This document shows, in pieces, positions 3,346 to 53,540 of a stretch of 64,000 nt of DNA. Within the stretch, counting starts at the first letter, position 1. Every line of letters starts with the position of its first letter. Origin of the DNA: Akkermansiaceae bacterium. GTDB lineage: Bacteria > Verrucomicrobiota > Verrucomicrobiia > Verrucomicrobiales > Akkermansiaceae. A program made the position numbers and the translations under genes. The stretch is taken from positions 28,114 to 92,113 of the forward strand of contig CAIXKE010000010.1 of the NCBI GenBank assembly GCA_903919975.1, written 5' to 3'. The notes under the pieces were generated by a model. That model saw nothing but the letters and a program-made list of their open reading frames with translations, did no database searches and was not told the DNA's origin.

Positions 3346-3590
3346 GCCTGAAATCCGCAGTTGAAGGCCGAGTTCGACGATTTTTTGCCAAGGATTACAC
3401 AGAAGGGATTTTGGGGCGAGGTCGGCCACCTCATTTCACCTAATGGGTCAAATCATAAATTCATATAACTCTTTGATAATCCGTAAAATCCATGTAATTC
3501 GTGGTTTTAATTGCGGAATTTAGAGTGAGTTTGGTTGCCAGCTGCTGGATAGTAGTCGTGGCTTGCGATTCGTTCGTTCGTCAGATTTTG

Positions 3591-21014: not shown

Positions 21015-21021
21015 ATAATTA

Positions 21022-21034
21022 GAAATTTGAGATT
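21022..21034 (-). repeat. Copy 1 of intercistronic core motif (sense AATCTCAAATTTC) in the gltB-gltD spacer
   Basis: Plus-strand GAAATTTGAGATT. A one-mismatch second copy, GAAATTTGTGATT, lies at 21036-21048. Confidence 0.9.
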
Positions 21035-21060
21035 AGAAATTTGTGATTTGAAATGATCGA

Positions 21061-26264: not shown

Positions 26265-27356
26265 ATGCCATCCCCTGTATTGCGAAGCAAGTTCCCCCCA
26301 TTCCTTTTTTCAACAATTCACCGTTTATTCGACTCCGGAAATCCGGAGTTATCCGCCGCAGGTTGGTCGTTGCGCCGATGGTGCCTGATTGCCTTGGTGG
26401 TTCTCGGATTGCCGTTCGCGTTTGCGACATCGGCCATGGCCCAGAGTTCGCCAATCTTGACGTGGAATTCCAATCCGGAATCCGACATTGCCGGATACAT
26501 CGTCCATCTTGGAACGGCGAGTGGTAACTATTCGGTGGTGCAGGATGTTGGAATGCTGACGAGTTACACCTTTTCCGGGCTTTCATCCTCCACGGTTTAT
26601 TATTGTGCGGTTCAGGCTTATAACACTGCTGGAATGACCAGCGGTATTTCCTCTGAGCTCTCGTTTACGCCCCAATCGACCACCGTGGTTCCGTGGTCGT
26701 CTTCGCCAATTTTGTCATGGAGTTCCAACCCTGAATCCGACATTGCCGGCTACATCGTCCATCTTGGGACCGTGAGAGGCAACTATCCGGTGGTTCAGGA
26801 TGTTGGAAAAGTGATGAGTTACGTTTTTTCCGGGCTTTCATCCTCCACGGTTTATTATTGTGCGGTTCAAGCCTACAATGTGGCTGGATTGATGAGCGAT
26901 ATTTCCTCTGAAATCTCATTTTCGCCGCAATCGGCCGTTGCTGTTTTCAACACGTGGGCGTCTTCGAGCGGTTTGAGCGGGGCGACTGCGGCACCGTCAG
27001 CCATGCCATTTCAGGATGGGGTGAAGAATGTTTTGAAATATGCATTCAACATGAATGCTGGTGCTGCGGACACTCGAATCTTGAAGGCGGGAGTTGGCAC
27101 GGTCGGATTGCCGGTATTCAGCATGAATCAAAGCAAATCGCCGCCATCCTTCACGGTTGAGTTTATCAAGCGCAAAGGAAGTGGGCTGGTTTATAGTCCG
27201 AAGAGCTCCACCGATCTTAAGGTGTTCCAGTCGATGAATGAGACGCCGACGGTCACGAGTATCGATGCGACATGGGAGCGGGTTAAAATCGAGAGGCCCA
27301 TCAACAGCGTGACCACTCCGAAGCTCTTCGGCATCGTGGAGGTGACCCTGCCATAA
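26265..27356 (+). CDS. Secreted protein with two tandem fibronectin-type-III-like repeats and an uncharacterised C-terminal domain
   Basis: Signal/TM segment. Two 85-aa repeats (SSPIL.W.SNPESDIAGYIVHLGT..GNY.VVQDVG...SY.FSGLSSSTVYYCAVQAYN.AG) with an FN3-like pattern. The C-terminal roughly 140 aa are unassigned. Confidence 0.65.
   Translation: MPSPVLRSKFPPFLFSTIHRLFDSGNPELSAAGWSLRRWCLIALVVLGLPFAFATSAMAQSSPILTWNSNPESDIAGYIVHLGTASGNYSVVQDVGMLTSYTFSGLSSSTVYYCAVQAYNTAGMTSGISSELSFTPQSTTVVPWSSSPILSWSSNPESDIAGYIVHLGTVRGNYPVVQDVGKVMSYVFSGLSSSTVYYCAVQAYNVAGLMSDISSEISFSPQSAVAVFNTWASSSGLSGATAAPSAMPFQDGVKNVLKYAFNMNAGAADTRILKAGVGTVGLPVFSMNQSKSPPSFTVEFIKRKGSGLVYSPKSSTDLKVFQSMNETPTVTSIDATWERVKIERPINSVTTPKLFGIVEVTLP
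26445..26954 (+). repeat. Tandem 255-bp coding duplication (2 copies, roughly 85% identical by eye)
   Basis: AGTTCGCCAATCTTGACGTGG at 26445 versus TCTTCGCCAATTTTGTCATGG at 26700. Includes an identical stretch, TTTTCCGGGCTTTCATCCTCCACGGTTTATTATTGTGCGGTTCA. Confidence 0.9.
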
Positions 27357-31961: not shown

Positions 31962-32678
31962 ATGAGTACCAAATCGAAGAAAAAAGCCCAAACGGGAGTT
32001 CGTTATAGCAACGAAGAAAAACAGAAGGTCGTTGATTTTGTCAGCGAATATAACTCCTCAAAAGGACGTGGCGGACAAAGCGTAGCTGCTAAGAAATTCA
32101 AAGTCACACCTCTCACGATCGCTACATGGATCAAGAGTTTGGGTAAGAAGGCCGCAACACCTGCGAAGGCTCTTAAGCCTGTGAAAGCCGCCAAGGCAGC
32201 GAAGCCTGCGAAAGCCGCAAAGCCTGCAAAAGCCGCAAAAGCCGCAAAAGCCGCAAAAGCCGCAAAGCCTGCGAAGTCAGCTGGTGCGAGCAAGATGGGC
32301 GTGCGTTATAGCCCCGAGCAAAAGCAAGAAGTTGTGAAATTCGTTCAGGATTTCAACGCTGCCAATGGTCGCGGTGGCCAAAGCCGTGCCGCTGATAAGT
32401 TCAAACTTTCCGTTCTCACTGTTTCCGCATGGCTCAAGGCCGCAGGCGTGAAGGGTGGCAAGGTTGCCAAGGCTCCGAAGGCAGCCAAGGTTAGCAAGAA
32501 GGCCGCTAAGGGCGCTGTGGTGAAGGCTGCAAAGTCCTCCGCCGCACCAACCGGTCTCGCCGCCAAGGTGGCTTCTCTGGTTAATATCAGCGAGCAAGTC
32601 AACCAAGCTGAGAAGGAACTCGAAAAGCTTTATGCCAAGCACGATGCCATCATGGCTTCGATCAAGAGCTTGGTCTGA
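31962..32678 (+). CDS. Lys/Ala-rich histone-H1-like protein with duplicated transposase-OrfA-type HTH module and C-terminal coiled coil
   Basis: Two homologous modules: GVRYSNEEKQKVVDFVSEYNSSKGRGGQSVAAKKFKVTPLTIATWIK and GVRYSPEQKQEVVKFVQDFNAANGRGGQSRAADKFKLSVLTVSAWLK. They are separated and followed by AKPAKAAK-type repeats. The end, QAEKELEKLYAKHDAIMASIKSL, is coiled-coil-like. Confidence 0.6.
   Translation: MSTKSKKKAQTGVRYSNEEKQKVVDFVSEYNSSKGRGGQSVAAKKFKVTPLTIATWIKSLGKKAATPAKALKPVKAAKAAKPAKAAKPAKAAKAAKAAKAAKPAKSAGASKMGVRYSPEQKQEVVKFVQDFNAANGRGGQSRAADKFKLSVLTVSAWLKAAGVKGGKVAKAPKAAKVSKKAAKGAVVKAAKSSAAPTGLAAKVASLVNISEQVNQAEKELEKLYAKHDAIMASIKSLV
32232..32267 (+). repeat. Perfect 9-nt tandem repeat GCCGCAAA(A/G) x4 inside the Lys/Ala region
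   Basis: Read directly from the sequence. Embedded in a longer AAG-CCT/GCC-GCA low-complexity stretch from about 32175 to 32276. Confidence 0.9.
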
Positions 32679-33234: not shown

Positions 33235-33243
33235 CTTAGATTT

Positions 33244-33256
33244 GAAATTTGAGATT
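33244..33256 (-). repeat. Copy 2 of intercistronic core motif (sense AATCTCAAATTTC) in the gcvP-NUDIX spacer
   Basis: Plus-strand GAAATTTGAGATT. The last T is part of the gcvP stop codon. The whole 21-nt spacer is motif sequence. Confidence 0.9.
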
Positions 33257-37037: not shown

Positions 37038-37972
37038 GCGTAGAAATAAAGCACAGATTCAGGCACTTGTCAGTGCCGATCATGTGACAAATCGCATGAT
37101 CCAACAACTGAGCGATCCTGAAGTCTTCTTTTTGCTTCATTAGTGGAGAATATGACTAGCGGATTCCGAGATGACGGTCTTTGGGCTGATAAAAGTCTGA
37201 TATTTCCTCCAATCGCTTTTGGCCTTCCGGGAGCATGTTGATAAAAATCGGCAGCACTGCAGAATGGTCACATGAACCATGTCCCGTCTCCACTTGACCG
37301 ATACGCGTCGAAAACGCCATTCCTGCCGCTGCTAGAGCATCCTCTTGTCGATGAAGTGATGGCGGGTAAGCGTTTTGTGACTTATCCGTTTGTCGTTTTG
37401 CTTTTGGTGATGTCGTTCAATCGTAACATGGGATGAGTTCGGATGGTCGGTCGTGACCAATGGCCGATGGTTCCCTTGTTTGGTGCCACATTGGTCACGA
37501 TTCTATTCGGTTGATGGGGTTTCCGTGGGGGGATTCTTTGGAGCCCACATTCCTTGTTCCATCTCTGGAGGGGCGGACGCGATTCCAACTTGGATGTGCT
37601 CAGCAACGTGGTCTGTCAGGGAATTGGCATATGATGGCCGCGTGTGGTGGAATTTTTTCGCTGGGCTGTCTTTTCATAAAGCATTTTTTAGACCCCCATA
37701 GAGGGATTGCCAAGGTGGAAACTTGGGATGGTTTGAGATGATGGATTTTTATTTGCGTCTCACCCACTTGGGTAAGGTGCGGCGTTCATCCGTCATCACT
37801 ATGCTCAGACATCCTGACATCTGCCGGAATTCCGGGTAATGACCGTGAAATGGCGTGACGCTATTTGTCTCCGCCCGGAGCCATCTCATCGGTAGGTTAT
37901 CCCATTTTCCGGCACTTCAGGATGCCTGATTCGACATCGGGACAAGTAGACGCGCCGCTACATGTTACTGGT

Positions 37973-40150
37973 TCAGTCCTCCGCTTGCTCTAGCAGGAGT
38001 TTGAGGATTTTTCTGGCAGAGTCCGGGATGACGGTGCCGGGGCCGAAGATGGCGGCGGCTCCGTTTTGATAGAGGTAATCGTAGTCTTGGGCGGGGATGA
38101 CGCCACCGCAGACGACCATGATGTCTTCGCGGCCGAGTTTTTTGAGTTCGGCGATGAGTGTGGGGAGCAAGGTTTTGTGGCCGGCGGCGAGGGAACTCAT
38201 GGCGACGACGTGAACGTCGTTTTCGACCGCTTGTTTGGCGGTTTCCGCAGGGGTTTGGAAGAGTGGGCCGATATCGACGTCGAAGCCCATGTCGGCGTAG
38301 GCGGTGGAGACGACCTTGGCACCGCGGTCGTGGCCATCCTGGCCCATTTTGGCGACCATGATGCGTGGGCGGCGGCCTTCGGCGGCTTCGAATTGTTTGA
38401 TGAGATCGGGGATGTCTTTCATGTCGCCCTGGTGGTTGAATTCTTTGCCATAGACGCCGGAGATCGAGCGAATGACGGCGGTGTAGCGGCCGAAATGGAC
38501 TTCCATGGCGTCGGAGATTTCACCGAGTGAGGCGCGGGCTTGGGCGCACGCGATGGCGAGGGCGAGCAGATTGCCTTCGCCGCCGCCGGCGCAATCGGTG
38601 AGGGCTTTGAGGGCGGCTTGGCAGGCGGCCTCGTCGCGCTCGGCGCGGAGTTTTTTGAGGCGCTCGATTTGCGAGAGTCTAACCGCAGTGTTGTCCACAT
38701 CGAGGATGTCGATGGGGTCTTCTTTGGCCAGGCGGTATTTGTTGACGCCGACGATCGTTTCTTCGCCGGAGTCGATGCGTGCTTGACGGCGGGCGGAGGC
38801 TTCCTCGATGCGCATTTTCGGGATACCGGCTTCGACGGCCTTGGACATGCCGCCGTATTCCGCGGCTTCCATGATGTGGGCCCAGGCGCGGTGGATGAGT
38901 TCGTGGGTGAGGGATTCGAGGTAATACGAGCCGCCCCAGGGATCGATGACGCGGCAGATTGAGGTTTCGTCTTGGAGGAAGATCTGCGTGTTGCGGGCGA
39001 TGCGGGCCGAGAAATCAGTGGGCAGGGCTATTGCTTCATCGAGCGCGTTGGTGTGCAGCGATTGCGTGTGGCCGAGGGTGGCAGCCATGGCTTCGATGCA
39101 GGTGCGGGCGATGTTGTTGTAGGGGTCTTGTTCTGTTAGCGACCAACCGGACGTTTGCGAGTGGGTGCGGAGGGCGAGCGACTTCGGGTTCTTCGGGTTG
39201 AAGGTTTTGACGATTTTGGCCCAAAGCACGCGGGCGGCGCGCATTTTTGCGACTTCCATGAAGTGGTTTTTCCCTTGTGCCCAGAAGAACGAGAGACGGG
39301 GTGCGAAGGCGTCGATATCGATGCCTGCGGCGATGCCGGTGCGGAGGTATTCCCAGCCATCGGCGAGGGTGTATGCCATTTCGAGGTCGGCGGTGGCACC
39401 GGCCTCCTGCATGTGATAGCCGGAGATGGAAATTGAGTTAAACTTCGGCATCTTCTGCGAGGTGAACTCGAAGATGTCGGCGATGATTTTCATCGATGGC
39501 TCGGGCGGATAGATATACGTGTTCCGCACCATGTATTCCTTGAGGATGTCATTTTGAATGGTGCCGGCGAGTTGGTCGAGGGTTGCTCCTTGTTCGAGGG
39601 CGGTGACGATATAGAAGGCGAGGATGGGAAGCACCGCGCCGTTCATGGTCATGGAAACGGAGACCTTATCGAGCGGGATGCTATCGAAGAGGATCTTCAT
39701 ATCGAGGATCGAGTCGATGGCGACACCGGCTTTTCCGACATCTCCGACGACGCGTTCGTGGTCCGAGTCATAGCCGCGGTGGGTGGCGAGGTCGAAGGCG
39801 ACGGAGAGGCCTTTTTGGCCTGCGGCGAGGTTGCGGCGGTAGAATGCGTTGGATTCTTCGGCGGTGGAAAATCCGGCGTATTGGCGGATGGTCCAGGGTT
39901 GGAAGCAATACATCGTGGCGTAGGGGCCACGGAGGAAGGGGGCGATGCCGGCCTGGTATTTCAGGTGCTCCATGCCTGCAATGTCGTCTTCGGTGTAGAG
40001 CGGTTTGACCGGGATTTTTTCCATGGTGTCCCAGACGATTTCGCCGACGGGTTTGCCATGTTCTTTTTCGAGGGCAGCGCACCAATCGGTGAATCCGGTG
40101 TTGGATGTGGTGGTGGCGAAGGGGATTTCGGCGAAGGCTGGACGGGACAT
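37973..40150 (-). CDS. mutB: Methylmalonyl-CoA mutase large (alpha, catalytic, B12-binding) subunit
   Basis: 725 aa. [25 protein letters not shown], the [10 protein letters not shown] family signature, and the C-terminal B12 domain [10 protein letters not shown]. Confidence 0.95.
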
Positions 40151-40321
40151 GGTGGGAAGGGGTCGGAAAGTCAGAAGGTCAAAAGTCGAAGGTCTGAAGA
40201 TTAGAGGCTTCTTTTTTGAGTAGTTATTGGTTCATGAAAGAATTTAACCACTGATTGCACTGATTTACTGATTGGGTTTCTGGTTTAAAATCTTCTTCTG
40301 TGAAATCTGTGTAATCTGTGG
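40151..40321 (-). repeat. 171-nt mutA-mutB intercistronic spacer composed of three blocks of degenerate 7-9-nt tandem repeats
   Basis: Plus-strand blocks: GGTCGGAAAGTCAGAAGGTCAAAAGTCGAAGGTCTGAAG (40161-40198), CACTGATTGCACTGATTTACTGATT (40249-40272) and CTGTGAAATCTGTGTAATCTGTGGTT (40298-40323). Confidence 0.85.
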
Positions 40322-42367
40322 TTAAATGACACCCGCAATTTTAAGCAATTGCTCATTCAACTCGTAGTTGTTGCTGCGGACGTTGACGAATTCATCGACG
40401 CCGGCGGCGCGCCAGGCGGCTTCGTTTTCTCCGGGCGCGCCGGCGACTAACAGGGTGATGCTTGGTTTCGCGGCTTTCGCGGCGGTGGCGAGGGGTTCGA
40501 CGGTGGTGAGGTAGGTGGCATCGTCGGAGGTGATAACGGCGATTTCCGCCTTACTGTCGGTTAGGGCTTTGATGGCTTCCTCAATGGTTGGAAAGTCGCG
40601 TGCGCCATCGATGACGAAACCGGCGGCTTCGAAGAATGAAGCGGTCCAGTCGGCGCGGAGGCGGTAGCGGCCGGAGGGGCCGATGTTGAGTTGGAGGATT
40701 CCTGGAGCGGAACCGGTCTTATTCGTGAAGGTTGCGGATGCGTCGTGCAGGGTTTCGTATTCCTCGGCGGCGCGGTGTGGCGGCAAGGCGGTGACGGTGG
40801 GTGCGCCATCGGAGTTGGTGAGTCCGGTGGCGATGGCGAGCGAGAATTTCGACGCTCCGGCTTTGGCTGCGGCGATGGCTTCGATGACCATGGCGGCGGT
40901 GGCGGACTGAGTGCCGGCAGCGGGTTGAGCGATTGGGTAGGCGGCTGCGGCGACCTCGGCAGCTTTGCATTCCGGGGCGTGGATGGCGAGTTTTTTGCCC
41001 TTGAGATCGGGATACATGTTGGACCCAACGATCTTGTCTTTGCGGATGCGGATGTTTTTGAACTTGGCCTTGCAGACGTCTTGCACGGCTTGTTGGACTG
41101 AGCCGCTTTCGAGGGCGGCGATCATACCGCCTTGTTTTTCGATGTCTTGGAATATGGACCAGCTTTTCCCGGCGATTTGAGCGGTGAGCCACTCGATGTA
41201 GGTTGAGCCGCCGGCGGGGTCGATGACGTGATCGAGTCCACATTCTTCGCGGAGGATGGTGTGGAGGTTGCGGGCGATGCGGCGTGAGAATTCATCAGTG
41301 TGGCCGGCGATTTCATCGTAGGGGCCGATGTGGAGGCTATCGACGCCGCCGACGACGGCGGCGAAGGCTTCGGCGGTGACGCGCAACATGTTGGTATGGG
41401 CGTCGTAGGTGGTTTTATTCCACTTTGAGGTGCTGGCGTGGATGTGGATGGGGGCGTTTTGCACGCCGTAAGCTGCGGCGACCTTGCTCCAGAGCATGCG
41501 GGCGGCGCGGATTTTTGAGATTTCCATGAAATAGTCCGAACCGATCGCGAGGCGGATGCGGATGTGGGGCAGGACGGTTTCCGCAGAGATGCCGCGGGAT
41601 TTCATTTCCTCGAGGTAACACACGAGAGTGGAGATGATATACGCCAGTTCTTGGGTGGCGGTGGCCCCGGCGTTGTGATAGACATCGCCTTGGATCGAGA
41701 TGGTGCGGAGCTGTGGGGCGTTTTTGGCCGCGTAGTCGGTGAGTGCGGCCATGTGGTCGAAGCGCAGGGCGAGCGACTGGCGGAGTTTGCCCTTGGCGAC
41801 GAGTTCTGCGAGTGGGTCGTTATCGATGCCGCCACGGAGTTTGGAGGCGGGTATGCCGGCTTGTTCGGCGGCGGCGATGAAGAGCGCGGTGACCGGGACG
41901 CTGGCGGGACCGGTTTGGAGATAGGTTGAAATGGAGTCCAGAGCGACTTTGGAGAGGGCGGTGGTGAAGTCAGCGGCGGTGGTGATTTTTGCGCCGCCGG
42001 TGCAGCATTCATCGGCACCGCAGCCGACGGGGATGTTGAGTTCGGATTGGCCGCCGTTGAGTCCTTCGTGGATGAGAGAGTTGAGTGATTCCGGGGATGT
42101 CGCTCTGAGTTCTTGAGAGACTTCCCAGCCGGCTGTTAGAAATCCTGCGGCGTGGCTGCCGCGGACGAGGGATCCTGAGCCAGGGAAGTGTTTGCGTTGC
42201 TCGAGATCTGCGATGTCTTCGCGGCGGTAGATCGGCTGAATTGTGATATCCTCGTAGGTTTGGCTGACGAGGCGTTTTTCAAATGGCGCGCCTTTGAGGA
42301 GGGCCTCGGCGGCGGCGTGCCATTGTTCGTAGGTGTGCTCCGGGAATTCGGATAGAAGAAGGGACAT
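40322..42367 (-). CDS. mutA: Methylmalonyl-CoA mutase small (beta) subunit
   Basis: 681 aa, MCM-fold homolog directly upstream of the alpha subunit, with the beta-type N-terminus W......LKGAPFEKRLV..TYE.I.IQPIY. Confidence 0.85.
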   Translation of the reverse strand: MSLLLSEFPEHTYEQWHAAAEALLKGAPFEKRLVSQTYEDITIQPIYRREDIADLEQRKHFPGSGSLVRGSHAAGFLTAGWEVSQELRATSPESLNSLIHEGLNGGQSELNIPVGCGADECCTGGAKITTAADFTTALSKVALDSISTYLQTGPASVPVTALFIAAAEQAGIPASKLRGGIDNDPLAELVAKGKLRQSLALRFDHMAALTDYAAKNAPQLRTISIQGDVYHNAGATATQELAYIISTLVCYLEEMKSRGISAETVLPHIRIRLAIGSDYFMEISKIRAARMLWSKVAAAYGVQNAPIHIHASTSKWNKTTYDAHTNMLRVTAEAFAAVVGGVDSLHIGPYDEIAGHTDEFSRRIARNLHTILREECGLDHVIDPAGGSTYIEWLTAQIAGKSWSIFQDIEKQGGMIAALESGSVQQAVQDVCKAKFKNIRIRKDKIVGSNMYPDLKGKKLAIHAPECKAAEVAAAAYPIAQPAAGTQSATAAMVIEAIAAAKAGASKFSLAIATGLTNSDGAPTVTALPPHRAAEEYETLHDASATFTNKTGSAPGILQLNIGPSGRYRLRADWTASFFEAAGFVIDGARDFPTIEEAIKALTDSKAEIAVITSDDATYLTTVEPLATAAKAAKPSITLLVAGAPGENEAAWRAAGVDEFVNVRSNNYELNEQLLKIAGVI

Positions 42368-42376
42368 TTGATAGGT

Positions 42377-42389
42377 GAAATTTGAGATT
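42377..42389 (-). repeat. Copy 3 of intercistronic core motif (sense AATCTCAAATTTC) in the CoA-transferase-mutA spacer
   Basis: Plus-strand GAAATTTGAGATT. A hairpin, GTTGGC-GAGAT-GCCAAC, follows at 42402-42418. Confidence 0.9.
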
Positions 42390-42427: not shown

Positions 42428-43915
42428 TTAGAACTTTGTGTTCCGCATGTCGCCGGATTCGAGGAAGGCTTCGTGGAAAGCGAAGGCGGAGCGGAACGAT
42501 TGCGGAGTGTGGCCGTTTTCGGTGAGTTGGAAGTATTTCCAGAGGAGATCCCGGTAGGATGGATCGACACAATTTTTGATGACCAATGCGGCGCGTTCGC
42601 GGGGGTCCTTCCCTCGGAAGTCGGCGACGCCGTGTTCGGTGACGAGGACTTGGACTGAGTGTTCGCTGTGGTCCATGTGCGAGCACATCGGGACGATGGC
42701 CGAGATGTTGCCATCCTTGGCGGTGGATGGGCAGGTGAAGATCGAGATGTAGGCGTTGCGGGTGAAATCTCCGGAGCCACCGATGCCGTTCATCATTTTT
42801 TGGCCGAGCACGTGGGTGGAGTTGATGTTACCGAAGATATCAGCTTCGAGCGCGGTATTGATCGAGATGATGCCGATGCGGCGGACGATTTCCGGGTTGT
42901 TGGCAATTTCCTGTGGGCGGAGGAGCAGACGACCGCGGAAGGCGTCCAGATTGTCATAGATGCTTTGCAGGACGGGATCGGTGACGGTGAGGGAAACGCC
43001 ACTGACGAAGGAGCAGCGGTCTTGTTTGACGAGGTCGATGACGGAGTCCTGGATGACTTCCGAATACATCTGGAAGGTCGGGATTTCCGGGTGGTCGCCC
43101 ATGGCGCCGAGCACAGCGTTGGCGACGTTTCCGACTCCGGATTGGATTGGCAGGAAACCTTTCGGAATGTGGCCGTTGCGGATTTCGGCGGCGAGGAATT
43201 CGGCGACGTTGAGGCCGATCTTGGTGGTGACATCGGTGACCGGGGAGAAGTCTTTGACTTCGTCGTTGCGGTTCGAGTGGACGATGCCGACGATTTTTTT
43301 GGGATCGACCCAGACGCGTTGGGTGCCGATTCGGTCATCGGCGGCGCAGATCGGGATCGGGCGGCGGTGGGGTGGTGATGCGGGTTCGTAGATATCGTGG
43401 AAGCCTAACAACTGCTTTGGATGGCGGTTGTTCACTTCGATGAGGATTTTTTTCGCTTGGGTGAGGAAAGTGGGGGTGGCACCGACGCTGGTGGTGAGGA
43501 GAATTTTTCCATCTGCGGAGACATCTGCGGCTTCGACGATGGCCCAATCGAGTTCCCCGAGGAATCCGTAGCGGACATATTGGGGGAGCAGGGAAAGGTG
43601 CATGTCGAAGAAATGCGTTTTCCCGGCGTTGATGCTGGCGCGGAGGTCCTTATCCGACTGATAGGGGGTGCGGAACTTGATGGAATCCGCTTTCGCGAGC
43701 GCGCCATCGAGTGAAGGGCCGGTGGAGGCGCCGGTGATGACACCCACTTTAAAATCCCGACCTGCGGTGTGTTCGGCGATGGCTTTTTCAGCGATGGCGG
43801 TGGGGATTACCTTGGCGGCACCGGCGGGGGTGAAGCCGCTGAAGCCGATATTTTCGTCATGATTGATGAAGGCGGCGGCTTCTTCCGGGGTGAGGACGGG
43901 ATATGGACTGTTCAT
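42428..43915 (-). CDS. Acetyl-CoA hydrolase/transferase-family succinyl-CoA:propionate (acetate) CoA-transferase
   Basis: N-terminus EEAAAFI.HDENIGFSGFTPAGAAKVIP, ITGASTGPSLDG, and FRTPYQSD..LR..IN.G...F.DMHLS, as in ScpC/AarC-type CoA transferases. Start set at ATG 43915. Confidence 0.8.
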   Translation of the reverse strand: MNSPYPVLTPEEAAAFINHDENIGFSGFTPAGAAKVIPTAIAEKAIAEHTAGRDFKVGVITGASTGPSLDGALAKADSIKFRTPYQSDKDLRASINAGKTHFFDMHLSLLPQYVRYGFLGELDWAIVEAADVSADGKILLTTSVGATPTFLTQAKKILIEVNNRHPKQLLGFHDIYEPASPPHRRPIPICAADDRIGTQRVWVDPKKIVGIVHSNRNDEVKDFSPVTDVTTKIGLNVAEFLAAEIRNGHIPKGFLPIQSGVGNVANAVLGAMGDHPEIPTFQMYSEVIQDSVIDLVKQDRCSFVSGVSLTVTDPVLQSIYDNLDAFRGRLLLRPQEIANNPEIVRRIGIISINTALEADIFGNINSTHVLGQKMMNGIGGSGDFTRNAYISIFTCPSTAKDGNISAIVPMCSHMDHSEHSVQVLVTEHGVADFRGKDPRERAALVIKNCVDPSYRDLLWKYFQLTENGHTPQSFRSAFAFHEAFLESGDMRNTKF

Positions 43916-43943
43916 GATTGGAAATTGGATGCCGGGTGGGCCT

Positions 43944-45089
43944 TCACTTGAGCATGGAGATGAAGTAACCGGCGGCAAGTGCGCTGCCGATCACTCCTGC
44001 TACGTTAGGCCCCATGGCGTGCATGAGCAAGTAGTTGGTGGGATCATACTTCTGGCCGACATCCTGCGAGACTCGTGCGGCCATTGGCACGGCGGAGACG
44101 CCGGCGGATCCGATGAGCGGGTTGATCTTATTCTCGCTAAAGACGTTCATGAGTTTGGCCATGAGTACGCCGCTGGCGGTGGCGACACCGAAGGCGACCA
44201 CTCCTAGAACGAGGATACCAAGCGTTTGTGGATTAAGGAACAGGTGCTTTGATCCTTCACCCATGCCCATTTTGAGGCCGACGCAGATGCCGAGGAAGAT
44301 GGTGACAATGTTGATGATTTCGTTTTGAGCGGCTTTGACGAGGCGTTCTGTGACTTTGCATTCGCGGAGCAGATTGCCGACGAAAAGCATGGAAAGGAGA
44401 GGTGCTGCGTCGCGGACGATGATGCAGCAGAATGACATGACTACGGCAGCAAAGATGAGTTTTTCCAATTGGCTGACTTTGCGCAGAGTTTTCATTTTGA
44501 TTCTGCGTTCTGCATGGGTGGTGAACAATTTCATGATGGGCGGCTGGATCAGTGGAACCAGTGCCATATAACTGTAAGCCGCCACCGCGATCGGTCCGAG
44601 CAGGTCCGGGGCGAGTTTCGAGGCCGTGAAGATCGAGGTGGGGCCGTCCGCACCGCCGATGACACCGATAGCACCTGACTCTGCGAGGCTAAATCCGAAT
44701 AGGGGAGCGACTAGAAATGTGGCGAAGATGCCGAATTGGGCGGCGCCGCCGAGCAAGAGCGTTCGCGGGTTGGCGATTAAGGGCCCGAAGTCCACAAGCG
44801 CTCCGACACCGAGGAAGATGAGTGGGGGATAGATCTGCAGTTTAATTCCTTGGTTGAGGTAATAGAACAAACCGCCGGGTTCATCACCGACGGGATGCTG
44901 CATGATGAAATCATGAATCGGCAGATTTGAAATGAGGGCTCCCAGCGAAATTGGCACGAGCAGGAGCGGTTCGAAGCCTTTGACGATTGCCAGATAGAGC
45001 AGGACCGCGACGACGATCCACATCACCATCATCTGCCATTGCAGATAGGGGAAGCCTGTCGTCATCCAAAGTTCGTAGAGTTTGTTCAT
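43944..45089 (-). CDS. mmdB: Na+-translocating decarboxylase beta subunit (OadB/MmdB family)
   Basis: 381 aa polytopic. [30 protein letters not shown] and [14 protein letters not shown] are family motifs. Confidence 0.85.
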
Positions 45090-45109
45090 TATTTCGTGGG
45101 AAAATCCGG

Positions 45110-45481
45110 TTAGCCGATGGTGTAGAGAATTTGGCCTTCTTCGACGGCGTCGCCGACTTTGACGTGGATGGCGGTGATGGTGCCGCTCATGGGGGCGTTG
45201 ATGGGCGTATACATTTTCATCGCTTCAAGGGTGATGACGAGGTCACCTTCGGTGACGATGCTGCCGACGGCGGCGTCGATGGCTTGGACGATGCCGGCGA
45301 GTGGGCTCGGGGCGTCGCCTGAGCCTGCGGCGACGGGTTTAGGGGCTGGAGCAGGGGCCGGGGCGGCGGCTGGGGCGGCGGATCTGACGGCAACTGGTGC
45401 GGTTGCGGATGAGTTCGAGTCGATGGTTTCGACGATGACGTCGTATGCTTTTCCTTCGACGGTGATGCGGAGATGTTCCAT
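45110..45481 (-). CDS. mmdC: Biotin carboxyl carrier subunit (MmdC-like)
   Basis: Biotinyl domain with EAMKM, an Ala/Pro linker, and the G.V..I.V..GD.V..G..L pattern. Confidence 0.85.
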
Positions 45482-45494
45482 GGCGATGATGTGG

Positions 45495-45875
45495 TTAACG
45501 GAGGCGGTGTGAGGTGAGGACGGATTGGCGGCCAGCTTTTTCCCAGCTGGTGCTCATAGGTTTGATGGAGATAATGCGGTGGGATTTGCCGGTGACGGTG
45601 GTGACGGCTGCGGCGATAACGGCGATAATTTCTATCGGGATTCCGGTGTGAGCGTCAGGAGTGGCGGTAGACGCTTCAGCGGGCTTGGCGACGGGAGACG
45701 CGATGGCTTTTGGTTCCGGCGCGAAGATTTGGATTAACTTCGCGGTGAGAGCGCAGACGCCCCAGAGGATGGTCAGGGTGATCATGACCATGAGCATGCC
45801 CGCAAGGTGGGGCACGGCATCCATGATCGAAGTGTGTGTTTTCTCTGCGGCAGCGAGAATCGGTGAAAAATGCAT
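45495..45875 (-). CDS. mmdD: OadG/MmdD-like small membrane subunit of the decarboxylase
   Basis: Single N-terminal TM helix (GMLMVMITLTILWGVCAL), an Ala/Pro-rich linker and an IIAVIAAAV segment. Position is between the carboxyltransferase and the biotin carrier. Confidence 0.55.
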   Translation of the reverse strand: MHFSPILAAAEKTHTSIMDAVPHLAGMLMVMITLTILWGVCALTAKLIQIFAPEPKAIASPVAKPAEASTATPDAHTGIPIEIIAVIAAAVTTVTGKSHRIISIKPMSTSWEKAGRQSVLTSHRLR

Positions 45876-45881
45876 ATTGTG

Positions 45882-47435
45882 TTAGAGTGGGATGTTACCG
45901 TGTTTCTTGGGTGGTCGGGATTCGCTTTTGCCCATGATGCCGCGGAAGGCGAGTGCGAGTGTGCTGCGTGAAGCTGCGGGGTTGATCACATCGGTGATCA
46001 TGCCGTTGGATGCTGCTTGATAGGGAGACGCAAATTTTTCCGAGTAGGCCTTGCGGAGTTCTTGTTCGAGGACGGCGGGGTCTTCGGCTTCTTCGAGTTC
46101 TTTTTTGTAGAGGACTTTCATGGCGCCTTGGGCACCCATGACGGCGATTTCCGCGGTGGGCCAGGCGAAAACGAAGTCCGCGCCGAGGTCGCTGGGGCAC
46201 ATGGCGAGATAGGCACCGCCATAGGCTTTGCGGCAGATGAGGGTGATTTTTGGCACGGTGCCGGACGCCCATGCAAAGAGCATTTTCGCGCCGTGGCGGA
46301 TGATGCCGCCGCGTTCCTGAGCGAGGCCGGGCATGAAGCCGGGAACATCGACAAGCGAGAGGATCGGGATCGAGTAGATGTTACAAACGCGGATGAAGCG
46401 GGCAGCTTTGTCCGATGCGTCGATATCGATGCACCCGGCCTTGACCATCGGTTGGTTGGCGATGATGCCGATGACGAGACCTTCGAGTTTGGCGAAGCCG
46501 GTGAGCATGTTCTGCGCGTAGTCCGGTTGGATTTCGAACCAAGAGCCGGGGTCCATGAGTCGGTCGATGACCTTCTGCATGTCGAGCGGCGACTTGGGAT
46601 CGGCCGGAATGATTTCGTTCATTCCGAGATCTTCGGTGAGCGGAATGTTGTCGTTCATCTTGTGCGGTGGATCGCCAAGATTGTTGGACGGCAGGTAGTC
46701 GAGGAGTTTCTTGGCAAGGTCCATCGCGTGTTGGTCGTCCTCGGCGATGAGGTGGATGTTGCCTGAGATTTGAGCGTGGGCGTCGGCGGAGGCGAATTGG
46801 TCGAGCGAGGCGGATTGGCCGGTGGCGGCGCGGATGACGTCCGGGCCGCAGATGAACATATTCGAGTTCTTCCGCGTCATGATGATGAAATCGGTGAGGG
46901 CGGGCGAGTAGGCGGCACCGCCTGCGCAGGGTCCGGCGATGATGGAGATTTGAGGGATGACGCCGGAGGCGAGCACGTTGCGGAAGAAGATCTGGCCGTA
47001 GCCTGAGAGTGCCTCGATACCTTCTTGGATGCGGGCTCCGCCGGAATCGTTGATGCCGACGACGGGCATGCCTGCCTTGATCGCAAAGTCTAACAGATCA
47101 CAGATTTTCTTGGCGTGGATGGCGCCGACGGCACCACCGCCGACGGTGAAGTCTTGGGCGAAAGCGGCGACCGGGCGGCCATCGACGTAGCCAGTGGCGC
47201 AAACGACGCCATCGCCGGGCATCTTGCGTTTTTCGAGGCCGAAGTTGATGCATGAGTGATGGGCGTGCATGCCGAACTCGATGAAGTTTCCGCCGTCGAA
47301 GAATGCCGTGAGTCGTTCACGGGCGGAGAGCAGGCCTTTTTCGTGGCGTTTTTCGATGCGGTCGATGCCGCCTCCGATGAGGGCTTCCTCGCGGCGGAGC
47401 TTGAGAGCCTCCAGTAGTGATGGGTCGATGGCCAT
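45882..47435 (-). CDS. mmdA: Methylmalonyl-CoA decarboxylase alpha subunit / acyl-CoA carboxyltransferase
   Basis: 517 aa carboxyltransferase fold. G.VDGRPV..FAQDFTV.GG, INDSGGARIQEG and RKAYGGAY. Confidence 0.9.
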   Translation of the reverse strand: MAIDPSLLEALKLRREEALIGGGIDRIEKRHEKGLLSARERLTAFFDGGNFIEFGMHAHHSCINFGLEKRKMPGDGVVCATGYVDGRPVAAFAQDFTVGGGAVGAIHAKKICDLLDFAIKAGMPVVGINDSGGARIQEGIEALSGYGQIFFRNVLASGVIPQISIIAGPCAGGAAYSPALTDFIIMTRKNSNMFICGPDVIRAATGQSASLDQFASADAHAQISGNIHLIAEDDQHAMDLAKKLLDYLPSNNLGDPPHKMNDNIPLTEDLGMNEIIPADPKSPLDMQKVIDRLMDPGSWFEIQPDYAQNMLTGFAKLEGLVIGIIANQPMVKAGCIDIDASDKAARFIRVCNIYSIPILSLVDVPGFMPGLAQERGGIIRHGAKMLFAWASGTVPKITLICRKAYGGAYLAMCPSDLGADFVFAWPTAEIAVMGAQGAMKVLYKKELEEAEDPAVLEQELRKAYSEKFASPYQAASNGMITDVINPAASRSTLALAFRGIMGKSESRPPKKHGNIPL

Positions 47436-47474
47436 AGTGTGATGTTCGGTTTAAGTGGGGAGTGGTGGGCGGGA

Positions 47475-47882
47475 TCAGTGGGCGGGTTGGCAGAACTCGG
47501 TGAGCACGCCGAAGGTGGATTTCGGGTGGAGGAAGGCGACGAGTTTGTCGCCGGCGCCTTCGAAGGGGACTTCATGGATAAGGCGGGCCCCCTTGTCTTT
47601 GGCTTGGGCGAGTTGACCAGTGATATCGTCGGTGGCGAAGGCGATGTGGTGGATGCCGCCGGAGGGGTTTTTTTCTAGAAACTTGGCGATCGGGCTGTCG
47701 GGGGAGGTGGGTTCGAGCAATTCGATGTGGACGTCACCTGCGGCGAAAAAAGCGGTGCGGACTTTTTGGGATTCGACTTCCTCACGGCCTTCGCAGGTGA
47801 GTCCGAGAATATTTTCGTAGTAGGGGATGGATTCTTCGAGGGAGTTGACGGCGATTCCCAAGTGGTCGATTTTCGTAATCAT
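47475..47882 (-). CDS. mce: Methylmalonyl-CoA epimerase (VOC/glyoxalase fold)
   Basis: MITKIDHLGIAVNSLEESIPYYENILGL and GGIHHIAF match the epimerase pattern. First gene of the propionate operon. Confidence 0.85.
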   Translation of the reverse strand: MITKIDHLGIAVNSLEESIPYYENILGLTCEGREEVESQKVRTAFFAAGDVHIELLEPTSPDSPIAKFLEKNPSGGIHHIAFATDDITGQLAQAKDKGARLIHEVPFEGAGDKLVAFLHPKSTFGVLTEFCQPAH

Positions 47883-53413: not shown

Positions 53414-53540
53414 TTTGGTAAAAGCTGAGATGCTGAAAAGCTGAGAAGCTGAAACTTAGGAGGTAAAAGCTGAGAAACTGAAAAGCTGAGAAGCTAAAAT
53501 TTGGAAGAAAGAGAGATTTGAAATTTGAGATTTGAAATCT
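53414..53540 (-). repeat. 127-nt E1beta-E2 spacer: two 38-nt direct repeats of AAGCTGAG-type octamers plus copy 4 of the core motif
   Basis: Direct repeats at 53417-53454 and 53462-53499 (35/38 identical). GAAATTTGAGATT at 53520-53532 within GAGATTTGAAATTTGAGATTTGAAATC. Confidence 0.9.

Follow-up and report, generated by a model that had tools for sequence, protein, structure and literature searches.

The genes mutA and mutB for the two methylmalonyl-CoA mutase subunits are separated by a 171-nt spacer filled with short tandem repeats in the analyzed DNA of an Akkermansiaceae bacterium (64,000 nt of contig CAIXKE010000010.1, referred to as the window). Our results suggest that this spacer probably consists of two modules, a selfish-looking element without an open reading frame (ORF) that resembles the intervening sequences (IVSs) of 23S rRNA, and a leader independent of a Shine–Dalgarno sequence. 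The hairpin half of the spacer, overlooked in an earlier note on the same DNA, was inserted there and belongs to a dispersed repeat family linked to the genes of GxxExxY and four-helix-bundle (IVS) proteins. The earlier note was half right: its observation of repeat blocks in a wide gap was confirmed in part, and partial support was obtained for its interpretation, i.e., selection on a property such as lack of structure or periodic protein binding rather than on one sequence.

Organization of the mutA–mutB Spacer

The spacer occupies positions 40151–40321 and reads on the sense (minus) strand TAA-CCACAGATTACACAGATTTCACAGAAG-AAGATTTTAAACCAGAAACCC-AATCAGTAAATCAGTGCAATCAGTGG-TTAAAT-TCTTTCATGAACCAATAACTACTCAAAAAAGAAGCCTCTAAT-CTTCAGACCTTCGACTTTTGACCTTCTGACTTTCCGACC-CCTTCCCACC-ATG. 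Its coordinates agreed with those reported before, both flanking genes carry a PF01642 domain, and the gap proved as unusually wide as claimed, the two genes being mostly −8 to +40 nt apart in approximately 70 other taxa and 32–59 nt apart in most Luteolibacter-like relatives. Tandem Repeats Finder detected three arrays in the spacer: block 1 (40297–40320, period 9, 2.7 copies), block 2 (40249–40274, period 9, 3 copies), and block 3 (40161–40199, period 8, ~5 copies), all with low scores of 30–49. The whole window contains 45 non-overlapping arrays, which corresponds to ~0.12 expected per 171 nt. Three blocks are indeed present, but they are not all different as had been stated, since block 2 is block 1 reverse-complemented (CACTGATTGCACTGATT vs. 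CACAGATTNCACAGATT, 2 mismatches in 17 positions). The pattern common to blocks 1 and 2 has four matches in the window versus 0.32 expected.

Blocks 1 and 2 are predicted to fold into an imperfect hairpin (Table 1) of −20.8 kcal/mol, compared with −10.9 ± 2.7 kcal/mol for shuffled sequences (z −3.7; none of the 300 shuffles was as stable). The stem spans the region from AUUUAAC, which holds the mutA stop codon, to GUUAAAU. Read in reverse complement, the right arm is CCACTGATT-G-CACTGATT-T-ACTGATT and thus consists of inverted CAC-N-GATT-N units, with T in place of A at the free fourth position of every unit. The search of the whole window against Rfam 15 gave a tRNA as the sole match at the gathering score, and the window contains no rRNA. 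On the spacer itself only sub-threshold matches to microRNA-precursor and long non-coding RNA families were obtained, the former of which indicate a generic long hairpin.

An assembly artefact, the refutation foreseen in the earlier note, was excluded by independent assemblies and by a 7.6-kb contig from a different freshwater metagenome that spans 39700–40800 with 43 substitutions and no gaps. The spacer was also present in contigs of four further runs and in one Joint Genome Institute assembly. In four runs labelled RNA-Seq, single contigs ran from the end of mutA through the spacer into the beginning of mutB, so that the spacer is probably co-transcribed with both genes if these runs truly are RNA. 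The variability of the spacer among related strains did not exceed that of the flanking coding sequence. One strain change, 40257 C>U, converts an A·C mismatch to an A–U pair and the remaining changes in the hairpin sit in the loop, a pattern that appears compatible with the stem. Logan unitigs of three runs terminated inside the spacer, and another metagenome contig aligned to 40238–40273 alone (block 2) with dissimilar flanks; it was from these observations that a dispersed nature of the blocks was first suspected.

Several known kinds of sites were rejected for the hairpin. An intrinsic terminator does not fit, as there are no terminator-like sites in 39900–40700 and the AU-rich stem is followed by UUAAAUUCUUUCAUG and not by a U tract; no internal promoter was found on the sense strand of the spacer. 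The ATTTAAC...GTTAAAT ends match the RYYYAAC/GTTRRRY consensus of integron attC sites, but the site is single, it has symmetric mismatches in place of extrahelical bases, and the flanks vary within the family. GATTNCACA resembles the DnaA box TTATNCACA, and some family copies begin with a perfect TTATCCACA. An array of DnaA boxes was nevertheless dismissed, because the final A of the box corresponds to the freely variable unit position 4 and the architecture recurs with dozens of unrelated units; one viral match to the pattern (L230) does sit in a genuine DnaA-box cluster. CRP, parS, IHF, and PhoB-type sites were dropped for poor fit upon sequence inspection only.

The CAC-N-GATT-N Family in Distant Phyla

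The exact 27-mer of block 1 was found in five other phyla, in metagenome-assembled genomes (MAGs) of Spirochaetota, Phycisphaerales, Anaerolineales, Anaerolineae, and Sedimentisphaerales, although only 7e-5 copies would be expected in the 596 Gb searched. These copies were always intergenic with unrelated flanks, and the same 27-mer was present in two viral contigs (L211 and L249). The family was defined by at least two tandem CAC-N-GATT-N nonamers starting with CCAC, an inverted second array within 200 nt, a variable loop, and an intergenic position. The window element has all of these features: the left arm (40295–40321) is exact, the right arm is inverted with the two mismatches mentioned above, and the whole is intergenic. 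Within the nonamer unit, positions 4 and 9 vary freely and the other seven are conserved.

A two-unit pattern search of species genomes revealed at least 120 loci, and 135 matches were analyzed among the matches listed. More than half of these 135 (57%) extended to a third unit in register (~1% expected), 40% had an inverted array no more than 200 nt away, and 113 were intergenic. The copies showed no orientation bias and occurred between divergent, convergent, and tandem genes in near neutral proportions. By host, the listed loci belonged to Bacteroidota (~31), Chloroflexota (19), Acidobacteriota (15), Planctomycetota (15), Verrucomicrobiota (11), Pseudomonadota (8), Spirochaetota (6), and Bacillota (1), with none from Actinomycetota among the matches listed. 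Isolate genomes (Chryseobacterium, Flavobacterium flevense, Herpetosiphon, Asticcacaulis, and Solimonas) also carry the family, so shared assembly contamination is an unlikely source of the cross-phylum matches. The pattern was additionally found in 54 IMG/VR viral contigs. Three MAG contigs of ANME-1/Methanophagales archaea (L119, L131, and L186) contain CCACAGATTACACAGATTT followed by YCACGAGA at loci apparently homologous to each other; these archaeal copies may reflect the true reach of the family, chance, or binning.

Altogether, 48 full palindromes were gathered, including the one at 40248–40321 of the window. Their loops were unrelated, 5–100 nt long, and some contained a nested GC hairpin, and the flanks beyond CCAC/GTGG were frequently complementary. 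This also applies to the window element, whose flanks (TTTAA/TTAAA) are complementary and not direct repeats. In a set of 67 distinct hairpins the arms were ~80% complementary. Solo, unpaired arrays are common in the family, and the window holds one of them at a distance from the spacer (Table 1). A literature search with the exact repeat strings found no paper.

Link of the Arrays to GxxExxY and Four-Helix-Bundle Genes

Repeat arms of this or a related type were found around two kinds of small genes, those of GxxExxY proteins (TIGR04256/PF13366, PD-(D/E)XK nuclease) and those of the four-helix-bundle “23S rRNA IVS protein” (TIGR02436/PF05635). In Chitinophagaceae (L191), Planctomycetota (L192), and Pyrinomonadaceae (L135), GxxExxY ORFs or pseudogenes lie between CACAGATT arms of the window-type family (CCACAGATTACACAGATTT... 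/ ...AATCTGTGTAATCTGTGG). Of the first 12 GxxExxY or four-helix-bundle ORFs encountered, 10 had flanking arrays, as did most of the 4 GxxExxY and 14 four-helix-bundle ORFs in the 2.96 Mb examined.

Two unbiased samples gave a similar picture. Among the mutB loci of approximately 75 other taxa, the mutA–mutB spacer was filled by a four-helix-bundle gene in four (L004, L009, L032, and L076), by a GxxExxY gene in L030 and a degraded copy of it in L048, by ORF-less repeat-armed hairpins in three (L006, L021, and L037), and by a tandem array of one orientation in L069. The gene-carrying insertions were bounded by inverted short tandem arrays and occupied the whole spacer. The six Bacteroidota insertions (L004, L009, L030, L032, L048, and L076) start 1–10 nt past the mutA stop codon and stop 10–25 nt before the mutB ATG. 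For the full-length element of L030 (Phocaeicola), metatranscriptome contigs of low depth spanned both junctions, and some ended within the arrays. In the second sample, obtained with tblastn against finished plasmids and chromids, four to five of the six GxxExxY genes had C[AG]C[AG]GAG-type arrays (CACAGAG/CGCAGAG) on their flanks, mostly inverted. These genes lie co-directionally in operon spacers; annotated examples between housekeeping genes are fabD-GxxExxY-fabG, radA-GxxExxY-FAD protein, and ade-GxxExxY-guanylyltransferase, at loci of a Sphingomonas parapaucimobilis chromid (L392), a Bacteroides finegoldii plasmid (L391), and Bernardetia (L390).

The association with the small ORFs emerged by targeted search only; an all-against-all BLAST of the neighbors at 125 loci showed response regulators alone to be shared. 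No description of the arrays as a general feature of GxxExxY or four-helix-bundle genes was found in the open-access literature, where PF13366 is characterized by “multiple transfers” and presence in viruses. With its 21-nt loop and no such ORF, the window element was classified solely as an ORF-less derivative.

History of the Spacer in Relatives

The spacers of relatives were located via MutA homologues. The host is a freshwater, Luteolibacter-like verrucomicrobium: the nearest of these homologues are annotated as Luteolibacter sp., and the runs bearing the spacer are lake, freshwater, and sediment metagenomes. The hairpin is shared by L382 (MutA 95% identical, 165-nt spacer), in which the left arm has two units versus three in the window and CAC is inserted in the linker, so the length polymorphism that the earlier note had proposed to look for does exist. 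L384 (85%, 177 nt) carries a hairpin with the loop AAGATTATGAACCGGAAACCC, a right arm composed of AATCTGCG ×3 and AATCTGTGG, and the leader AATCTCAAATTTCAAATCTCCAATCTCC without block 3. Its loop is conserved with that of the window, which shows the two hairpins to be homologous.

Six other relatives lack the hairpin. One G-poor CAGCWTYT array fills the spacers of L383 (88%, 45 nt), L387 (78%, 59 nt), L388 (78%, 47 nt), and L389 (76%, 32 nt); L386 (79%, 34 nt) has one G-poor AAATYTC array, and L385 (79%, 79 nt) an array of the CACTTMT type. In all of them the array is followed by a short C/A-rich tail (..ACCACC, ACCAAA, ACCGCC, CTTCCC, or TTCCCC) and the ATG; the CCCACC of the window is also seen among relatives. 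The hairpin-less spacers of 32–59 nt in Luteolibacter-like relatives indicate that the hairpin was inserted within a subclade and that the ancestral state of the mutA–mutB junction is a short leader. The units inside one arm change in concert. Another repeat-armed hairpin (AGAAGAC ×5/GTCTTCT ×4), followed by a TTTCAGCATCTACC leader, was noticed in the CoA-transferase–mutA spacer of L387 (1070–1200).

G-Poor Leaders without Shine–Dalgarno Sequences

The final 48 nt upstream of the mutB ATG contain 5 G, in agreement with the earlier count, and the start CCCACC-ATG has 4 G in 40 nt and no Shine–Dalgarno motif at −20 to −4. Lack of structure, one of the properties invoked before, could apply to one half of the spacer at most. 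Folding predictions give a weakly structured region around the mutB start (unpaired probability 0.65–0.70; z +0.8, not significant), whereas blocks 1 and 2 form the long hairpin described above. Nearly all leaders of the methylmalonyl-CoA pathway genes are G-poor and devoid of a Shine–Dalgarno sequence, and most ATG-start genes on the minus strand have 0–5 G in the upstream 40 nt (~10 expected) and likewise no Shine–Dalgarno sequence.

The leader arrays are built of recurring words. A 20-mer of block 3 was found again in two metagenome contigs that are not homologous to each other, each time within a like array. The G-free word AATCTCAAATTTCAAATCT, a heptamer array, has five copies in the window versus 0.03 expected, all on the sense strand in intercistronic leaders (four such leaders are given in Table 1), and the exact 19-mer was found in at least 120 species genomes versus ~4 expected, among them Verrucomicrobiota, Planctomycetota, Acidobacteriota, Bacteroidota, Nitrospirota, and others. 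In many genomes such arrays lie very often 0–30 nt upstream of an ATG. Four-helix-bundle genes with a AATCTCAAATTTCAAATCT-type unit are flanked by direct copies of it, so that the inserted gene and the gene that follows each have a leader. Two Pyrinomonadaceae loci (L283 and L286) contain nested modules, CACAGAG-armed hairpins with the AATCTCAAATTTCAAATCT leader word as the loop.

The likeness to the E1beta–E2 spacer, pointed out in the earlier note, was upheld, as both contain G-poor tandem 7–9-mers on the sense strand without a Shine–Dalgarno sequence, a style also seen in other leaders of the window. Each CAGCTTYT run of the E1beta–E2 spacer ends with CAGCTTTTACC (TACC), continued by TCCTAAG in the first module and by AAA-ATG in the second, and the spacer looks like a duplicated leader module. 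The same kind of leader, CAGCWTYT with TACCNNN-ATG, precedes mutB in L383, L387, L388, and L389. In this lineage the mutB leaders are always G-poor arrays, drawn from the CAGCWTYT, AAATYTC, GACYTTY, and CACTTMT families, and their interchangeability fits the idea of a conserved property. The other part of that idea, a property rather than one sequence, is contradicted by units that are exact across distant taxa, both in the 27-mer and in the 19-mer.

Short direct repeats without G are likewise found in the omega leader of tobacco mosaic virus. Bacteroidetes initiate translation without Shine–Dalgarno sequences, tuned by low structure and an A at −3 (Baez et al. 2019). Their leaders resemble that of mutB in the lack of a Shine–Dalgarno sequence, the A at −3, the low G content, and the low predicted structure. 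Unlike in the Bacteroidetes model, the leaders here are exact tandem words recurring across phyla and the host is a verrucomicrobium, to which, by analogy, the model may extend.

Proposed Origin of the Spacer and Alternative Explanations

In the explanation that we favor, module 1 (40242–40327) would be an ORF-less miniature of a widespread class of small, probably selfish IVS-like elements with inverted short tandem arrays, here of CAC-N-GATT-N units, at their ends. The full-length elements carry a GxxExxY gene, and a sister type, built of other units, the gene of the four-helix-bundle IVS protein. Such a presumably mobile miniature would have been inserted right after the mutA stop codon in the ancestor of a Luteolibacter-like subclade, breaking the tight mutA–mutB coupling. 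In the co-transcribed mRNA, the arms would fold into the 26-bp imperfect duplex, which most likely would be cut or trimmed by RNase III, by analogy with the 23S rRNA IVSs, or would at least be retained as an inert or stabilizing stem, and the insertion would be tolerated. Module 2 (40151–40241), comprising the A-rich linker and the G-poor, C/U-rich array ending with CCCACC-AUG, would represent the usual weakly structured, Shine–Dalgarno-independent leader of this lineage, from which mutB would start independently of mutA.

Several results weigh against this explanation. No target-site duplications were found in the window element or in the other palindromes (48 compared), no GxxExxY or four-helix-bundle gene is present anywhere in the 64-kb window, and we know of no transposition mechanism for these proteins. 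The hairpin has been retained since the split from L384, which would be expected of a parasite that is tolerated but equally of an element with a function for the host. Among the 67 distinct hairpins, G·U and A·C mismatches numbered 28 and 24, respectively, without an excess on the sense strand. At the two free unit positions the arms did not covary beyond the level given by base frequencies, the values being 0.729 versus 0.694 expected at N4 (reached by 154 of 2000 shuffles) and 0.49 versus 0.40 expected at N9 (reached by 226 of 2000). With neither covariation nor wobble asymmetry, RNA pairing as such seems not to be the selected feature, and RNA-level selection on the stem was rejected on these negative or weak tests. 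The conserved object looks to be the unit and not the pairing, which leaves room for protein recognition or templated copying. Cutting by RNase III is a property of the 23S rRNA IVSs, and the window hairpin may be processed in this way by analogy with them. The RNA-Seq label of the spanning runs was flagged as uncertain, DNA content being possible. The low structure of the mutB start lacks significance, and an enhancer role of block 3 may be proposed from its composition and analogy alone.

Alternatively, the spacer may be an intercistronic regulator selected by the host. The hairpin would then set the subunit ratio as a 3′-end stabilizer, a partial barrier, or a processing site, like the repetitive extragenic palindromes (REPs) and bacterial interspersed mosaic elements (BIMEs) in malE–malF, with the leader tuning mutB translation and the likeness to selfish elements reflecting origin and not the present role. 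Such a function agrees with the homologous loop retained across 85% MutA identity, with a hairpin conserved at least as well as the adjacent coding sequence in strains 94–96% identical, with the one substitution that betters pairing, and with the overlap of the stem and the mutA stop codon; repeat-armed hairpins have also arisen independently at the mutA–mutB junction in Ignavibacterium, Parabacteroides, and Bacteroidales. We consider it unlikely nonetheless. Most relatives lack the hairpin, one at 88% identity among them, the family has no preference for gene context or orientation and is found in viruses, arm covariation and G·U asymmetry are absent, and the spacer has no terminator-like U tract or sense-strand promoter.

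The periodic protein binding mentioned in the earlier note would act at the DNA level, with the arrays as cooperative sites for a small protein (ribbon–helix–helix, nucleoid-associated, GxxExxY, or four-helix-bundle) and the inverted arrangement as two site arrays instead of an RNA stem. The omega repressor, MetJ, and ParG bind unspaced 7–8-bp repeats, direct or inverted. The conservation of seven out of nine unit positions, with positions 4 and 9 free and not covarying between the arms, the lack of strand asymmetry in the wobble-type mismatches, the common solo arrays, and the concerted change of units within an arm are all in line with such binding. It is quite improbable in our view, as dozens of unrelated units share the architecture and a separate protein would be required for every one of them, the neighboring genes include no candidate for such a protein, the 9-bp period fails to keep the sites on one helix face, and the leader arrays lie strictly on the sense strand beside start codons, which points to RNA. 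A neutral by-product of replication slippage and quasi-palindrome template switching in place, in intergenic DNA free of constraint and with no function or mobility, could produce units that number three versus two between close strains, that change in concert within an arm, and that score low in Tandem Repeats Finder; genomes bearing the arrays are also rich in other short arrays (447 per 832 kb versus 117 per 705 kb at control loci). This last alternative is largely refuted and can be given very little weight, considering the exact 27-mer and 19-mer identity across phyla far above chance, the arms bracketing specific gene families, the strictly sense-oriented leader arrays, and the conservation of the spacer among related strains, which equals that of the coding sequence on either side.

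Comparison with Known Elements

The closest parallel to the proposed IVS-like insertion is offered by the 23S rRNA IVSs of Coxiella burnetii, Leptospira, and Salmonella, which, like the hairpin described here, are small insertions in a transcribed region with inverted repeats and a stem of ~26–28 bp with few mismatches. The Coxiella IVS is selfish, has a terminal stem of 28 bp that RNase III cleaves and an ORF for the S23p four-helix bundle, and contains in its 5′ region three tandem GACAGAT heptamers with a degenerate GACAGAA, in a copy number that varies among strains (PMC4990558). These heptamers with a degenerate last unit resemble CACAGATTA CACAGATTT CACAGAAG of the window, where three versus two units were found between strains. 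Horizontal transfer has been suggested for IVS elements, and the full-length relatives of the window element encode the IVS ORF family (PF05635) or GxxExxY. Unlike in the 23S rRNA IVSs, the site is an intercistronic mRNA spacer and not rRNA helix 25 or 45, and the window copy has no ORF, measures 86 nt compared to 100–760 nt, and has arms only ~80% complementary.

REPs, BIMEs, and REPINs are, like the window element, short intergenic palindromes, often intra-operonic, arranged as singlets or inverted doublets, non-autonomous, and proposed to stabilize mRNA. REPs are GC-rich palindromes of 20–40 bp with a GTAG or CGTC tag, species-specific, present in high copy number, and linked to a Y1 transposase, the REP-associated tyrosine transposase (RAYT). 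The assignment to REP/REPIN was rejected, as the tag here is CCAC/GTGG, the arms are tandem arrays, the sequence crosses phyla, and the window has about one locus per 20 kb, with one paired locus and one solo arm in its 64 kb; no RAYT link and, apart from response regulators, no shared neighboring gene was found across the 125 loci. Miniature inverted-repeat transposable elements (MITEs) share with our element the origin as ORF-less derivatives, with inverted ends, of a gene-carrying element and the variable presence among relatives. They differ in that the loops here are unrelated between copies, the partner is a small nuclease or four-helix bundle and no known transposase, and, of the inverted ends and target-site duplication by which MITEs are recognized, inverted ends alone were found.

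The short tandemly repeated repetitive (STRR) heptamers and small dispersed repeats of cyanobacteria are reportedly specific to that group. The former are said to be tandem 7-nt units, intergenic or intra-operonic, with several families per genome, and the latter 21–27 nt long with hairpin potential and of unknown function. To our knowledge, neither a link to GxxExxY/IVS genes nor cross-phylum identity has been described for these cyanobacterial repeats.

Wider Reading and Significance

More tentatively, the short arrays may be the ends and leaders of miniature elements, mobile or propagated by copying, that form a vast class with hardly any description so far, with GxxExxY and four-helix-bundle (S23p/Avd-like) proteins as their autonomous partners. 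The class would extend over Bacteroidota, Verrucomicrobiota, Planctomycetota, Acidobacteriota, Chloroflexota, Spirochaetota, and viruses, would have colonized core-operon spacers, and would count the 23S rRNA IVS as one of its landing sites. Each element could be made harmless by a removable stem and by bringing or duplicating a G-poor, Shine–Dalgarno-free leader for the next gene, and the mutA–mutB spacer would be a fossil of this process. The shared units (CACAGATTN, CACAGAGNN, AAATYTC, CAGCTTYT, GACYTTY, and others) might then reflect recognition or templating by these proteins.

If this is true, GxxExxY/PF13366 and four-helix-bundle/PF05635 proteins, abundant families of unknown function, would gain a context and a testable role, and the intervening sequences of rRNA would join a wider population of elements living in mRNA spacers. 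It would also explain the long repeat-filled gaps in core operons of these phyla and the assembly breaks in such gaps. The exact, portable leader words may drive translation free of Shine–Dalgarno sequences and could serve as parts of genetic tools for Bacteroidota, Verrucomicrobiota, and Planctomycetota. In annotation, such arrays ought to be masked or labelled and not read as regulatory sites of the neighboring genes.

Other Features of the Window

Table 1. Positions of the spacer parts, flanking genes, and related repeats in the window.
Feature	Position	Strand	Description
Solo CCAC-N-GATT arm	3478–3504	plus	AATCCGTAAAATCCATGTAATTCGTGG; in a convergent spacer, without an inverted partner nearby
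AATCTCAAATTTCAAATCT leader site	21016–21048	minus	
AATCTCAAATTTCAAATCT leader site	33238–33256	minus	exact AATCTCAAATTTCAAATCT; fills the 21-nt gap between the glycine-cleavage P-protein gene and a NUDIX gene
mutB	37973–40150	minus	PF01642 and B12-binding subunit
mutB start	40148–40160	minus	CCTTCCCACC and ATG; A at −3, no Shine–Dalgarno sequence
Block 3, mutB leader	40161–40199	minus	CTTCAGAC CTTCGAC TTTTGAC CTTCTGAC TTTCCGAC C; solo, not inverted, G-poor
A-rich linker	40200–40241	minus	TCTTTCATGAACCAATAACTACTCAAAAAAGAAGCCTCTAAT; 3-nt CAC insertion in related strains
Imperfect hairpin (predicted)	40242–40327	minus	26 bp in 6 helices; 1 × 1 mismatches (three A·A and one A·C) and one bulge
Right arm (block 2)	40248–40273	minus	AATCAGTA-AATCAGTGC-AATCAGTGG
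Loop	40274–40294	minus	AAGATTTTAAACCAGAAACCC, 21 nt
Left arm (block 1)	40295–40321	minus	CCACAGATT-A-CACAGATT-T-CACAGAAG, ~3 nonamer units
mutA stop codon TAA	40322–40324	minus	within the stem base; AUUUAACCAC pairs with GUGGUUAAAU
mutA	40322–42367	minus	mutase subunit, PF01642 only, without B12 domain
AATCTCAAATTTCAAATCT leader site before mutA	42371–42389	minus	word AATCTCAAATTTCACCTAT; leader array of the same class
E1beta–E2 spacer	53414–53540	minus	AAATYTC ×3.5 (exact AATCTCAAATTTCAAATCT at 53514–53532), then CAGCTTYT × ~10 in two modules

On the minus strand, the genes at 42428–47882 together with mutA and mutB (37973–42367) make up a full set for the conversion of succinate to propionate: an epimerase, a carboxyltransferase, small subunits, the beta subunit of a Na+-translocating decarboxylase, a CoA transferase of the succinyl-CoA:acetate type, and both mutase subunits. 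Downstream of mutB, a region of 935 nt (37038–37972) contains no convincing gene, only two plus-strand ORFs of 82–93 aa with no Pfam match. Two further repeats lie within ORFs. A 255-bp tandem repeat (×1.9) at 26447–26933, within the ORF 26265–27356 with two fibronectin type III domain matches, is probably a coding domain duplication unrelated to the intergenic arrays. At 32184–32269, AAAGCCGC is repeated 9.8 times within the ORF 31962–32678, which has weak helix–turn–helix domain matches, and represents a coding low-complexity repeat and not an intergenic array.

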